Below are positions 1,128 to 19,363 of a DNA stretch of 64,000 nt, one piece after another. The DNA lies in the IMG/VR virus record IMGVR_UViG_3300047198_000026, positions 1-64,000 of that record, one strand, 5' to 3'. The translations under genes and the position numbers were made by a program. Each line of letters starts with the position of its first letter. The first letter of the stretch is position 1. A model generated the notes under the pieces. The model ran no database searches. It saw only the letters and a list, made by a program, of their open reading frames with translations, and was not told the origin of the DNA. This stretch comes from a virus.

Positions 1128-2138
1128 TCACTCTTCCTCCTCAAACTCTGGGGGAACAACTTGTTCCTCATAGGTATGTTCTACACCCGATCGTCCTTCA
1201 ATAATCTCCCTACTTATTCTGACCCTAATCTTCCAAGGTTTGGGCCAGGTCTCTTGGTGTCCATGCTTGTGAAGATGCTTTGAAAACTCTTTGGCGAACC
1301 TCTGCTTCTCTTGGTCAAGGCTGCTCTGATACTCCCCAACAAACTCAGGGATGATTTCCCAGCCTTTCTTGACATCAGTGGAGTCTGAGACATTAAGACG
1401 TTCCCCTTCCATCTTTTGTTTGATTCGGCCAGTCTGCCTTGGAGACATCTGCATCTTCTTGGCTAAAGATCGAATAGAGTCTGGAAGTTTACGTCCTCTT
1501 CCCCCTGCCCGAGAAACTGTAGCACCTGCCACACTTTCTGTACCTGGGAAGGGATCTAACCTCTCTAACTCCTCAACATACTTCCACCTTTGCTCTCCTG
1601 ACAACTGCCTTCTGGCAAAATTTGCCCTCAAACCCCTTGCCTTCATCATTCCTACGTCTTTCCTTGAGGTTCTGACTCCAGTCACATTGGCCTCTATAAT
1701 GGTAATCCCCAACTCTTTGGCTATCTTGACTCGCGAATATCCATCAATGATGACATAGCCTCCCCCATCTGAGGCATTATTCTCCATGACTGTGATGGGC
1801 AACTCAATCCCATACCTCTTGATGCTGTCCTTTAGGGTCTCATAGTCCTCTGGACATAGGGGATCGAAGTCCCTAATGTCATTAATATTATGGAGATCTT
1901 TATTCACATCCACGTCAATACGCCGATTGTCAGGGGCAAGACCACCCAGTTGCCTTTTGATCTCCATCATCATATCTCTTGCTTCAGCTACCTGACTTGG
2001 GGTGGCTACAATGTGACCATCAATGATTCTCTGATAGATCTCATAGGCCATTGATAAATCTCCAGCCTTAGTGGCCCTTACGGCCTCCTGAAAGAAACTA
2101 TTTACTATCTCCTGTGGCAAAACTCCTCTTCTTCCCAT
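1128..2138 (-). CDS. ParB/Srx N-terminal-domain DNA-binding protein
   Basis: LKDSIKRYGIELPITV...YVIIDGYSRVKIAKELG...NFARRQLS followed by HTH-like SIRSLAKKMQMSPRQ; start set at MGRRG after AGGAGG. Confidence 0.8.
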   Translation of the reverse strand: MGRRGVLPQEIVNSFFQEAVRATKAGDLSMAYEIYQRIIDGHIVATPSQVAEARDMMMEIKRQLGGLAPDNRRIDVDVNKDLHNINDIRDFDPLCPEDYETLKDSIKRYGIELPITVMENNASDGGGYVIIDGYSRVKIAKELGITIIEANVTGVRTSRKDVGMMKARGLRANFARRQLSGEQRWKYVEELERLDPFPGTESVAGATVSRAGGRGRKLPDSIRSLAKKMQMSPRQTGRIKQKMEGERLNVSDSTDVKKGWEIIPEFVGEYQSSLDQEKQRFAKEFSKHLHKHGHQETWPKPWKIRVRISREIIEGRSGVEHTYEEQVVPPEFEEEE

Positions 2139-2385
2139 ATTTACCTCCTTTTTTCCTATATTCTTTGTACTCACAAGTTCGAACCAGATTACAATCCCCA
2201 GTGTCTTTATTCCCATTCAAGGGGGCAATCTCTCTAATAGGAGATTTTCCACATGCTACCCAAATAAATCTACCAGGATCTTCCTTTCTCATCTTTTCAC
2301 AGACGCATCCTCTATTACCGTACCCGTCTGGTGTATCCCATTGGAAGTGGATACACTTTGTATATTGGTTCTCACTTATCTGCAT
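2098..2385 (-). CDS. Small Cys-rich protein, MxxSxN-tagged (MQISEN)
   Basis: ORF track; paralogous with 2376..2609 (C.H...G.RGCV). Confidence 0.65.
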   Translation of the reverse strand: MQISENQYTKCIHFQWDTPDGYGNRGCVCEKMRKEDPGRFIWVACGKSPIREIAPLNGNKDTGDCNLVRTCEYKEYRKKGGKYGKKRSFATGDSK

Positions 2386-2609
2386 GGTTCCTCAAGTTCC
2401 GCATACTTACATGTCTTTAATATTAAACATAGCATTGATTTGTCATGGCCCATCAGTCCGATAACCCCACTTGGAGATTCTATCTCTTCTCGAAAGGTCA
2501 TAGCAGAATCATGACTCTTTCTCAGACGAACACATCCTCTATGACCAGCCTTATCTTGTATAATAAGGTAGTGTTTGCAATTTCTATGTTTATTATAGCT
2601 TATCTGCAT
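2376..2609 (-). CDS. Small Cys-rich protein, MxxSxN-tagged (MQISYN)
   Basis: ORF track; shared N-terminal motif. Confidence 0.65.
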   Translation of the reverse strand: MQISYNKHRNCKHYLIIQDKAGHRGCVRLRKSHDSAMTFREEIESPSGVIGLMGHDKSMLCLILKTCKYAELEEPCR

Positions 2610-2613
2610 AACA

Positions 2614-2847
2614 TCACCGTACTCTTATTAAGTACCTCATGTTAACCTCAAATACCCACGGTTTTCTAAAATCGGGTGGTCCTCCTGTAAGGGTACTGAA
2701 GTTCACCATACATCTCCTATATCTCATCCTCCTAAGTACCAAACCCCTACTCCCTGATCTAGTGAAAGTATATGGTGCACCCCAGGTCACCATTACTTGA
2801 CATCCTTTTACAATTCTGTCACTTTTCCTATTCTTGCTTATCTGCAT
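2614..2847 (-). CDS. Small basic protein, MxxSxN-tagged (MQISKN)
   Basis: Internal ATG of track ORF 2614..2865 with GGAGG upstream. Confidence 0.65.
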   Translation of the reverse strand: MQISKNRKSDRIVKGCQVMVTWGAPYTFTRSGSRGLVLRRMRYRRCMVNFSTLTGGPPDFRKPWVFEVNMRYLIRVR

Positions 2848-3232
2848 GAGGACAGGTTCCTCCATTCCTTGACTTTCCTAAGTTGCAGTTATAACAGAGG
2901 GTTTGAAACTCCTCTGGAAACTTCTCCTTTATGACCCATGTGTACCAATCTTTTATCTTACCTTTAATCTCTCTTCTATGGACATTACCTGCCCCTTCTT
3001 TGTGGTCAAGGGTAAGGAACATTGGCTCATCTTCTCCACAGCATTGACATCGCCATCCGTAATGGTCAAGGACATCAATGGTCTGAGCCCATCGCCATGA
3101 GCCATTGGACAACTTGATAATCTTCTTACAACTTGGGCAGGACTCATAAATATACCCAATAGGAAGTATCCTTTCACAGTGAACACATTGATGTTTGGCT
3201 ATTCTTTCACTCTTGGTTTGTGCTGGTATCAT
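2828..3232 (-). CDS. HNH endonuclease
   Basis: CQCCG...LTLDH...FQTLCYNCN motif. Confidence 0.8.
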   Translation of the reverse strand: MIPAQTKSERIAKHQCVHCERILPIGYIYESCPSCKKIIKLSNGSWRWAQTIDVLDHYGWRCQCCGEDEPMFLTLDHKEGAGNVHRREIKGKIKDWYTWVIKEKFPEEFQTLCYNCNLGKSRNGGTCPHADKQE

Positions 3233-3240
3233 GTTCTCCT

Positions 3241-17482: not shown

Positions 17483-17707
17483 ATGGAATTGAGTCCCAAT
17501 AAGAAGGTCTATCCAGTTGGCACCATTGTGTTTACCCGGGGTAGGATGCCCCTACTGGGTCTTGAGGGAACTATAGGTAAGGTGGAAAGGGTACAAGGGC
17601 AAAGGATGTTCGTTAGGTTTCCTTGGCCGGACTTCCGGACAATTGAGCTCACCCATGATGAGATAACCACCTGTAATGAGGTTAAGTACTTGGACTCGGA
17701 GAGATAA
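17483..17707 (+). CDS. Small protein (MELSPN)
   Basis: AGGAG RBS; internal ATG of track ORF 17417..17707. Confidence 0.65.
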   Translation: MELSPNKKVYPVGTIVFTRGRMPLLGLEGTIGKVERVQGQRMFVRFPWPDFRTIELTHDEITTCNEVKYLDSER

Positions 17708-17847
17708 TGCAGATAAGTAAGAATCAGGCCACCTGCTATTACACCTACCTCCTTTACAAGGAGGTAACCCCTTGTATTGGTTGCACAATACAGTGGTGTA
17801 AATACTGGAGGGACCAGAGGTGCTTAGATGGAGATGAGCCCCAATAA
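17707..17847 (+). CDS. 46-aa Cys-rich protein (MQISKN), below the ORF-track cutoff
   Basis: TAATG overlap; MQISKNQATCYY...CIGC...C. Confidence 0.6.
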   Translation: MQISKNQATCYYTYLLYKEVTPCIGCTIQWCKYWRDQRCLDGDEPQ

Positions 17848-18043
17848 AGTAAGAACAATCAAGATTTTTTCAGCAATGGATGCCTATATGGAGCCCTTCA
17901 AGTTTACCGGAGAGGACCTGACCACAAAATGGGAGAAGGACTATCTGACCATTTACGATCGCACAGTCCTTACTTTTCGAATCCAGAAAGAAAAGTGTGT
18001 GATAATAGTCTATGATAGGGAAGGTTATGAAAACAGAAACTGA
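17828..18043 (+). CDS. Small protein (MEMSPN)
   Basis: ORF track; GAGG RBS. Confidence 0.65.
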   Translation: MEMSPNKVRTIKIFSAMDAYMEPFKFTGEDLTTKWEKDYLTIYDRTVLTFRIQKEKCVIIVYDREGYENRN

Positions 18044-18376
18044 CATTAAAGAGGCCCTGAGGAGACATAAGATTCTACAAGAGGTCCTCCTGGGGAGGGG
18101 AGACATATACTATAGGGAGATAGATAGGGTAAAACAACTTCATGAGCTTCAGATAGTGGAGACGGTCATAGAGGTCCTAGGGTGGTGTCTAAAAGATGAC
18201 GAAGAAGTCCTACAACTACTCTGATGATGACCTCCTTGAGAAGTGCCTAAAGCATTATGAGTGGCTCCTTAGGAGGATATCCTTTTGGCAATGGCTATCC
18301 TATCGCGTATGGAGGTTCTTTAAGAGGTTGATATGAGAGGAGATTGCTGGTTTTGTAGAGAGAAAGAGGTAGAGTA

Positions 18377-18592
18377 ATGGAAAAGTCCTTAAATACCCGG
18401 TATATTCATATGCCTTCTCATACCTTTAGGGACACAGAGGATCCTTCTTTTGAGGTCCCCTTATTGGATGTCTATAGGGAAGATGTATATTTGTATCCCC
18501 GGGAGGACCAAACGGATGTGGCAAAGTGTGATGCCTATCCCATTGGGGAGGGTCCTTTAAAAGACATAAGGGTAAGACATGGAAAAAAGTGA
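18377..18592 (+). CDS. Small protein (MEKSLN)
   Basis: ORF track; GAGG RBS. Confidence 0.6.
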   Translation: MEKSLNTRYIHMPSHTFRDTEDPSFEVPLLDVYREDVYLYPREDQTDVAKCDAYPIGEGPLKDIRVRHGKK

Positions 18593-18896
18593 AAACCAAC
18601 GCAACTGCCCATTCTCAAAGGGCGACTGGGTTCGGAAAAAGTTTGGACTGGCCGAGGGGGAAGTGGTGGGTTTCAAGAAGTGCCACCAAGGATGTTACTT
18701 TCAGAACTTTCCCTCCTGTGGACCAGATGCTTGGAATATACTGGTGAAACTTAGACATACTGAAGGTTTACAAGAAGTAGAGTTCTGTCCCTTCAGTTGG
18801 GAGAAAACCAAGAAGCCTGAAATTCATGAATGGATTGCGGATGAATTGGAGGCTGTAACAGGAGTTAGTACTTATCAACAAGGAGGACATCCATAA
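18579..18896 (+). CDS. Small protein (MEKSEN)
   Basis: ORF track; FSKGDWV and Cys motifs, resembles 6342..6737. Confidence 0.65.
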   Translation: MEKSENQRNCPFSKGDWVRKKFGLAEGEVVGFKKCHQGCYFQNFPSCGPDAWNILVKLRHTEGLQEVEFCPFSWEKTKKPEIHEWIADELEAVTGVSTYQQGGHP

Positions 18897-19363
18897 TGGA
18901 ACGATCTGAAAATGAGGTAATATGTTGTGACAAATGTAACAAGGCCTTTGAGCAGGGGGAAACCTTCGAAGTCCTTCTGATCAAAATAGATGACAGATTT
19001 AGAGAGGTTAGATTCCATAGGCAATGTAGTCCCTTGAAGTTTCCAGATTGGGTGAGTGAGTGGGATCGGGGGTACAAGCAGGCTTTCAGCATCCCGCCTA
19101 TTACACCTAGTTATCCACAGTCTCCAATAACAATAACTCCTTACAATCCATCGTGGGGTGGTAGTAGTTATAACTCCAATGGGGCAAATCAGGCGCCACA
19201 GGCTATGCAGGGGTCACAGGCTATGAATGTGACAGCCACAGAATTGGCCATGAAGCAGCAAGAGTCCAGGCTCCGGCTTACACAGCAGTTCAAGGATCTT
19301 GGCCTAAATTCTAAGGCCATTGGCGAGTTATTAATGGAGGATGACGAGGACAAAAAGTCATGA
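18896..19363 (+). CDS. Hypothetical protein (MERSEN)
   Basis: AGGAGG RBS; CDKC...HRQC. Confidence 0.65.
   Translation: MERSENEVICCDKCNKAFEQGETFEVLLIKIDDRFREVRFHRQCSPLKFPDWVSEWDRGYKQAFSIPPITPSYPQSPITITPYNPSWGGSSYNSNGANQAPQAMQGSQAMNVTATELAMKQQESRLRLTQQFKDLGLNSKAIGELLMEDDEDKKS

Follow-up and report, generated by a model that had tools for sequence, protein, structure and literature searches.

A position-specific N-terminal hexapeptide shared by about a quarter of the genes of an uncultured freshwater-sediment phage

Many small and otherwise unrelated proteins of an uncultured freshwater-sediment phage open with the same hexapeptide, M-x-x-S-x-N, hereafter the tag. The DNA in question is the first 64 kb (the window) of a 102,592-bp virus contig, G000. 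We scanned the window at every ATG, and the whole contig also with GTG and TTG starts. An earlier reading made from the sequence only had listed 27 tagged starts, and the direct scan recovered 27 of 27 with the peptides as listed (21 minus-strand, 6 plus-strand), all of which fit the narrower pattern M-[EQDK]-[ILMKRT]-S-x-N. Applied to open reading frames (ORFs) of at least 35 aa across the contig, this pattern identified 44 tagged genes among about 180, or about a quarter, the total coming from a rough gene call made for this analysis. The 17 tags beyond the window all lie at 81-102 kb on the minus strand, and two of the tagged genes start with GTG (85033 and 100076). Further tagged genes may be missing: the contig lacks a terminal repeat and has a CheckV completeness of 50%, its complete relative measures 106 kb, and both of its ends fall in minus-strand early arms.

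The number of tagged genes far exceeds the background. Given the frequencies of serine and asparagine in the proteome, 0.47 tagged genes would be expected by chance among 180, compared with the 44 observed (binomial p = 4e-72). The motif is also bound to its position. Counting the pair S(i)-x-N(i+2) along the first 30 residues gives 44 cases at i = 4 and no more than two at any other offset, and internal tag-like pentapeptides are not enriched (11, versus 7.9 ± 2.7 in shuffled sequences). For 7 of the 10 tagged proteins that we looked up, the Joint Genome Institute (JGI) gene calls place the start at the identical tagged codon. We found no description of an M-x-x-S-x-N motif in the literature searched, in line with the earlier statement that none was known.

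Across the 44 tags, the consensus is M-[E24 Q15 D3 K2]-[I19 L15 K6]-S44-[K21 E9 P8]-N44-[R13 K10 Q5]-[R12 V7 K6], where the numbers are counts, so that Ser4 and Asn6 are invariant. The sequence MELSKE at 14806, previously pointed out as a near-match, is indeed one, with Asn6 replaced by Glu. Residue 2 is small in none of the 44 tagged genes, compared with 13 of 61 and 32 of 75 untagged genes, and Met1 should therefore be retained as part of the motif. Among the untagged early genes, 24 of 61 have the translation-favoured start "MK"; this being their ordinary start, the tag is not the ordinary translation optimum of this phage.

Selection acts on the peptide rather than on the RNA. The earlier observation that Ser4 uses all six serine codons within the window was borne out, and over all 44 tags the codons are AGT (16), AGC (8), TCA (12), TCT (4), TCG (2) and TCC (2), that is, 24 AGY and 20 TCN. 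Position 4 is never ACN (Thr) or TGN, although a "W-S" constraint at nucleotides 10-11 would admit both. The use of both serine codon families, the complete avoidance of ACN and TGN, and the tolerance of GTG at two starts together place the constraint on the peptide. Conservation upstream of the tag amounts to a modest Shine-Dalgarno signal only, and downstream it fades after codon 6-7. There is no antisense copy of the tag in the window, and the divergent intergenic region matches no Rfam family except tRNA. The codon preferences seen within the tag, namely GAA over GAG and purines at third positions, are mostly shared with codons 2-7 of untagged early genes, the only tag-specific choices being ATA for Ile3 and AAG for Lys5.

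The tag is restricted to one part of the genome. The late genes form a long block on the plus strand, and the phage encodes a large terminase together with a portal and major capsid protein of the SU10 type. Its small and replication genes occupy minus-strand arms at 1-16.7 kb and 81-102.6 kb and a plus-strand cluster at 17.0-19.4 kb. Taking early and late timing from gene order, 44 of the 105 genes in the early/replication arms are tagged, compared with none of the 75 genes in the late and sugar-metabolism blocks. The carriers are short (median 75 aa), with a single exception, an 810-aa DNA polymerase. The sequence-only reading had described the tag as absent from both the morphogenesis genes and the large enzymes; the first part stands (0 of 75 late genes), and the second does not, as the polymerase, encoded just outside the window, begins MDISQN.

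This polymerase is a fusion of a family-4 uracil-DNA glycosylase (UDG), a 3'-5' exonuclease and a family-A DNA polymerase. A perfect AGGAGG, correctly spaced, precedes its tagged ATG; there is no overlap with the upstream gene, and tagged genes flank the polymerase gene on both sides. We inspected the N-termini of 70 polymerase homologues (best identity 51%), and none was tagged; the homologues start from one to a dozen residues before the same CxxC. The polymerase, itself independent in origin, thus acquired the tag as an extension in this lineage.

Apart from the tag, the carriers have little in common. After removal of the first seven residues, the 44 bodies fall into 31 BLAST clusters, including 24 singletons and a few pairs. 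The recognizable groups are family A2, with four clear members (CxNGSLC...), and family A3, a loose Cys/His family of eight (Y-x-C...C...C-x-H-x3-H). Iterated profile searches within the proteome extended neither family and merged no clusters, which agrees with the earlier description of the bodies as unrelated and often Cys/His-rich. Cysteine makes up 5.3% of the carriers, compared with 2.8% of untagged small early proteins (p = 9e-4), and 29 of the 43 small carriers contain at least four cysteines. The first cysteine lies at residue 10-13 in 24 of these 43 and at residue 11 in the polymerase (25 of 44 together); the other 19 carriers have no nearby cysteine, and some have none at all. The usual layout is thus the tag, then a linker of 3-6 often basic residues, and then the start of a domain that probably binds metal. 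No homologue of any small carrier was detectable in the nearest relatives examined, neither the early arm nor the three tagged proteins tested have DNA or protein relatives among isolate phages, and family A2 has no relatives among 5.8 billion proteins. The A3 Cys/His module (Y-x-C ... C ... C-x-H-x3-H ... C), on the other hand, has a wider distribution than the tag: it is repeated 2-13 times in tandem inside larger metagenomic proteins (P0126-P0130), for example one of 241 aa with 4 stretches and one of 744 aa with 13. It is thus an unnamed small domain that probably binds metal.

The tag is confined to a narrow lineage. Two relatives, one of 83 kb (G1) and one complete at 106 kb (G2), share the structural and replication core with the phage, the capsid protein of G1 being 61-64% identical and the polymerase of G2 42% identical. 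Tagged genes are found neither in these two genomes nor in four shorter contigs whose polymerases are 46-48% identical; over all the tag-less relatives (loci L035-L040, G1 and G2), polymerase identity is 42-48%. Searching 1.84 billion representative proteins with an A3 profile, we recovered one further tagged member, P0131, which starts MEISDNRKWIC and is 30-36% identical to the members of this phage; untagged homologues start M(K)EN-x-LYIC. The longest contig recorded for P0131 is a JGI contig of 47,675 bp; an equal length is recorded for P0136, a DUF2201 protein 84% identical to that of this phage, and we take the two to share one contig, which would represent one close relative. As P0131 is tagged and yet only 30-36% identical, the tag persists in this close relative while the body diverges. 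Searching with P0131 or the tagged-family alignment yielded nothing usable among viral contigs, where all matches were spurious, or among metagenome contigs. As background, we scanned 141 phage loci, of which 70 surround a DUF2201 homologue, 54 a polymerase homologue and 17 a capsid homologue. The commonest N- or C-terminal residue triple occurred at most 4 times per locus, compared with 12 times in the first 20 kb of the window. Two tag-less relatives each have three to four short genes near the polymerase with similar starts, MKTFxH in L038 (1698-10130) and MKILKH/Q in G1 (L039:675-1483, 10386-10721); these sets may represent small families of paralogues or faint equivalents of the tag, and we did not count them as tags.

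At the strain level, the phage is present almost unchanged in contigs from several freshwater-sediment runs, and contigs from four other such runs are nearly identical to the window, with 3 substitutions. So few differences leave no population variation with which to test selection on the tag. In one strain variant (P0256) of a 126-aa carrier, three residues are missing directly after the intact tag.

We tentatively favour the possibility that the tag is a portable N-terminal handling or address signal read by one factor. Invariant Ser4 and Asn6 at a fixed distance from a retained Met1, the presence of the tag on an unrelated enzyme, and its outlasting of the bodies that carry it are all consistent with a short linear motif, one that a single partner would bind as a free N-terminus. 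Under this reading, the lineage would place the hexapeptide M-[EQ]-[IL]-S-[KEP]-N at the Met-retaining N-terminus of about 40% of the proteins of its early/replication arms, with a short and in most cases basic linker separating it from the folded part. One common factor would bind the free end in an extended conformation, and all carriers would be handled as one class, whether stabilized, processed, matured or recruited. The earlier suggestion of a phage-wide address tag is in this respect the best available reading. The T4-type capsid loading that it included is not supported, and the tags are limited to the early/replication arms.

The phage itself encodes candidates for the reader among the tagged genes. 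A DUF2201 protein (8275-9456, minus strand) combines a zincin-like domain (HEVMH) with a vWA domain that has an intact metal ion-dependent adhesion site (MIDAS; DASGS), and it is encoded together with a MoxR-like AAA+ ATPase (9664-10716, minus strand), its possible partner. Both are untagged, and a tagged Cys-rich gene (9425-9664) sits between them. The HExxH and the MIDAS DxSxS are invariant across 59 DUF2201 homologues. A third untagged protein, a minimal M28/M42-like metallopeptidase of 192 aa (19360-19938, plus strand), is encoded by the first gene after the plus-strand tagged cluster and is the only N-terminus-specific enzyme type that we found in the phage; searches of the genome for peptide deformylase, methionine aminopeptidase, ClpS and ClpP families found none. 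This M28/M42/M20-like peptidase falls in several ESM Atlas clusters of similarly short, mostly viral peptidases. Searching PDB sequences with the M28-like and DUF2201 proteins gave no matches. The complete genome of G2, which has no tags, lacks all three proteins (DUF2201, AAA+ ATPase and M28 peptidase). This absence, and the co-occurrence of the tag with the DUF2201 protein in two genomes, this phage and its close relative, hint weakly at a link between tag and reader.

Pairs of vWA and MoxR proteins have been proposed to capture a client peptide and remodel the client (PMC7159879). The phage pair resembles the known MoxR-vWA systems (NorQ/NorD, RavA/ViaA and ternary systems; PMC7159879) in being encoded together, here by a phage and among tagged genes; such pairs are known from metalloprotein maturation, and many of the carriers are Cys-rich. 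It differs in that the tag has Ser and Asn at its invariant positions, not the acidic residue that known vWA ligands offer, and in that 70 other loci with the same vWA-zincin protein show no tag. The AAA+/DUF2201 pair, the candidate reader that we weakly favour, might mature the many Cys-rich and probably metal-binding carriers. The fuller version of this proposal, in which the MoxR AAA+/vWA-zincin machine or another single receptor recognizes the roughly 44 early proteins, including the UDG-polymerase with its iron-sulfur cluster, and then matures, metal-loads or processes them, we consider quite unlikely.

Several observations weigh against a common reader. No reader protein was found, and it is hard to see which handling the polymerase and 43 small orphan proteins would all need. 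The 70 other DUF2201-bearing phage loci show no enriched terminal motif, and small M28-like peptidases are likewise widespread among phages without tags, so that the tag cannot be predicted from either enzyme. Three residues frequent in the tag, isoleucine, lysine and asparagine, favour early elongation in E. coli (PMC6920384). The start regions also differ in two ways. Shine-Dalgarno pairing is weaker on tagged genes (mean -7.3 versus -9.5 kcal/mol on untagged genes, p = 7e-5), and in 29 of the 44 the stop codon of the upstream gene lies inside the tag, with an overlap of 10-29 nt, an arrangement that would also fit a role in translation. The overlap is exactly 20 nt in 13 cases, 14 nt in 8 and 17 nt in 3, the stop in the 20-nt class being formed by the T of AAT and the first two bases of codon 7. 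Among untagged early genes, 9 of 57 have such overlaps and 17 of 57 an ATGA overlap, which occurs in no tagged gene. We read the overlap pattern as partly a by-product of the A-rich NNT-RAN codon pattern of the tag, and most carriers are probably translationally coupled to their neighbours. A conserved C-terminus of the upstream protein was considered and rejected, as the overlapping frame encodes varied, non-conserved tails.

These start-region features support a different explanation, which we regard as doubtful, namely that the tag is a translation start module whose first six codons act on the ribosome through the nascent peptide and early elongation, securing weakly initiating, overlapping small genes that are fed by termination-reinitiation within the tag. 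In E. coli, protein yield is governed by which residues codons 3-5 encode, K, N, I and Y above all (PMC6920384), and a nascent MSKIK raises translation irrespective of codon choice (PMC10192921). Like these translation-enhancing peptides (MSKIK and the K|N-Y|I "short ramp"), the tag acts, if it acts there, through amino acids rather than codons, has a similar composition (S, K, I, N), and is strictly positional, occurring only at residues 1-6. Those peptides are, however, engineered sequences or statistical preferences of E. coli, whereas the tag is a natural motif whose full invariance at Ser4 and Asn6 is far stricter than a yield optimum needs, and the untagged early genes of the same phage keep the ordinary "MK..." start. 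The polymerase is tagged despite its strong Shine-Dalgarno sequence and lack of overlap, the late, highly expressed genes never are, the folding energy of the start region is the same for tagged and untagged genes, and untagged N-termini show most of the same codon bias. Descent offers another account, unlikely in our view: one small Cys-rich gene would have multiplied in tandem, its copies diverging until unrecognizable, and in-frame deletions would have moved its first codons onto neighbours such as the polymerase, so that the tag would be a domain fragment passed down by descent rather than a signal in its own right. Tandem arrays of tagged genes, families of four and eight members, a first cysteine at residue 10-13 in more than half of the carriers and the flanking of the polymerase by tagged genes all speak for it, as does the M(K)EN-x-LYIC start of outside A3 homologues, by which Asn6 may be ancestral to the A3 domain. 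Yet 19 of the 44 carriers have no nearby cysteine, some being Cys-free, profile searches leave the bodies unlinked, and without selection on the hexapeptide the switching between AGY and TCN with Ser and Asn kept in 44 of 44 would be unexpected.

The analogy drawn in the sequence-only reading, that the tag resembles the capsid-targeting sequence (CTS) of phage T4 and directs carriers into the prohead for injection with the DNA, is not supported, and we consider it very unlikely. T4 internal proteins have an N-terminal CTS of roughly 10 residues (PMC3012670, PMC9026906), which, on IPI-III and Alt, is likewise a short peptide at the extreme N-terminus of otherwise unrelated proteins and acts as an address; small basic proteins would also be plausible as injected anti-defence factors. 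The T4 sequence is nonetheless cleaved by the prohead protease and found on few late head proteins, whereas the 6-residue tag is on 44 carriers that all lie in the early/replication arms, divergent from the late block. A cargo of so many different proteins, one of them the 810-aa polymerase, would be out of the ordinary. Pfam and PHROG comparisons of the head module and other large genes revealed no recognizable prohead protease or ClpP-type protease, and there is no conserved cleavage context past Asn6. It is also highly improbable that the tag is a modification site for the radical S-adenosylmethionine (rSAM)/SPASM enzymes of the phage, closing an N-terminal ring with, for example, an Asn-Cys thioether, a link of NxxC type as in NxxcB. 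Asn6 is invariant and a cysteine follows 4-7 residues later in 25 of the 44 carriers, and four rSAM/SPASM genes lie at ~37.7-43.9 kb. Those genes, however, are in the late tail block beside Cys-repeat fibre genes, a different block from the tagged genes, which sets the tag apart from the leader tags of RiPP-like (ribosomally synthesized and post-translationally modified peptide) rSAM/SPASM systems. Moreover, G2 has rSAM orthologues (46-51% identity) without the tag, 19 carriers lack that cysteine, and where present its spacing varies.

If the tag does label the products of a quarter of the genes, dozens of early proteins now counted as orphans would be handled as one class, and one peptide with two invariant residues would provide a single experimental handle on unannotated proteins. 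A reader, if it exists, would define a new route by which proteins are sorted, matured or turned over during infection, and should it be the AAA+/vWA pair, the tag would be the client-recognition code of a widespread and functionally unexplained phage chaperone-peptidase pair. A tag acting on the ribosome would instead be a natural, evolved counterpart of engineered translation-enhancing tags.

The tagged ORFs of the window, all from the ATG scan, begin on the minus strand with a series of 95 aa (2098-2385, MQISEN), 77 aa (2376-2609, MQISYN), 77 aa (2614-2847, MQISKN), 82 aa (3241-3489, MDLSKN) and 83 aa (3470-3721, MQISKN). The four members of family A2 follow, with 71 aa (3708-3923, MEISKN, the CxNGSLC type), 68 aa (4210-4416, MQLSKN), 68 aa (4397-4603, MKLSKN) and 79 aa (4584-4823, MQISKN), and next to them is a 61-aa member of the Cys/His family A3 (4795-4980, MQLSKN). 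Further along are carriers of 131 aa (6342-6737, MQMSEN) and 126 aa (7708-8088, MDISKN), the latter being the one with the variant P0256 on another contig. Two A3 proteins adjoin the DUF2201 gene: one of 68 aa (8069-8275, MELSPN) directly downstream of it, and one of 79 aa (9425-9664, MEISKN) between it and the AAA+ gene. Beyond these lie ORFs of 91 aa (10713-10988, MQLSKN), 123 aa (10989-11360, MEKSEN), 115 aa (11644-11991, MEKSYN), 109 aa (12921-13250, METSKN, with a weak zinc-ribbon match) and 70 aa (13559-13771, MKLSKN), and two more A3 members of 66 aa (13746-13946, MELSKN) and 54 aa (13927-14091, MEISKN). The near-match MELSKE opens a 64-aa ORF at 14612-14806 on the same strand. On the plus strand, the tagged ORFs encode 74 aa (17483-17707, MELSPN), 46 aa (17707-17847, MQISKN), 71 aa (17828-18043, MEMSPN), 71 aa (18377-18592, MEKSLN), 105 aa (18579-18896, MEKSEN) and 155 aa (18896-19363, MERSEN).

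Other features of the phage and its relatives emerged alongside. Two tRNA genes are on the minus strand of the window, tRNA-Ala(TGC) at 327-402 and tRNA-Ile(GAT) at 16084-16153, the latter in the gene-poor divergent region between two early arms. At window positions 770-813, other freshwater-sediment contigs break or rearrange at ~772-813, with a 42-nt back-joint and many loose ends; the spot is the junction of two small MKKLLLL-type membrane or signal-peptide genes and may vary between strains. Between the large terminase and the portal, positions 25765-27852 encode a 695-aa protein in which residues 444-520 form a GNAT acetyltransferase domain and a further short stretch is tape-measure-like; it is possibly a virion-borne enzyme. 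Lastly, the major capsid homologue of G2 matches in at least three pieces over ~3.2 kb (L117-L119; G002:C1:83623-86836), some with in-frame stops between them, which suggests intervening elements such as an intron, an intein or a homing-endonuclease insert.

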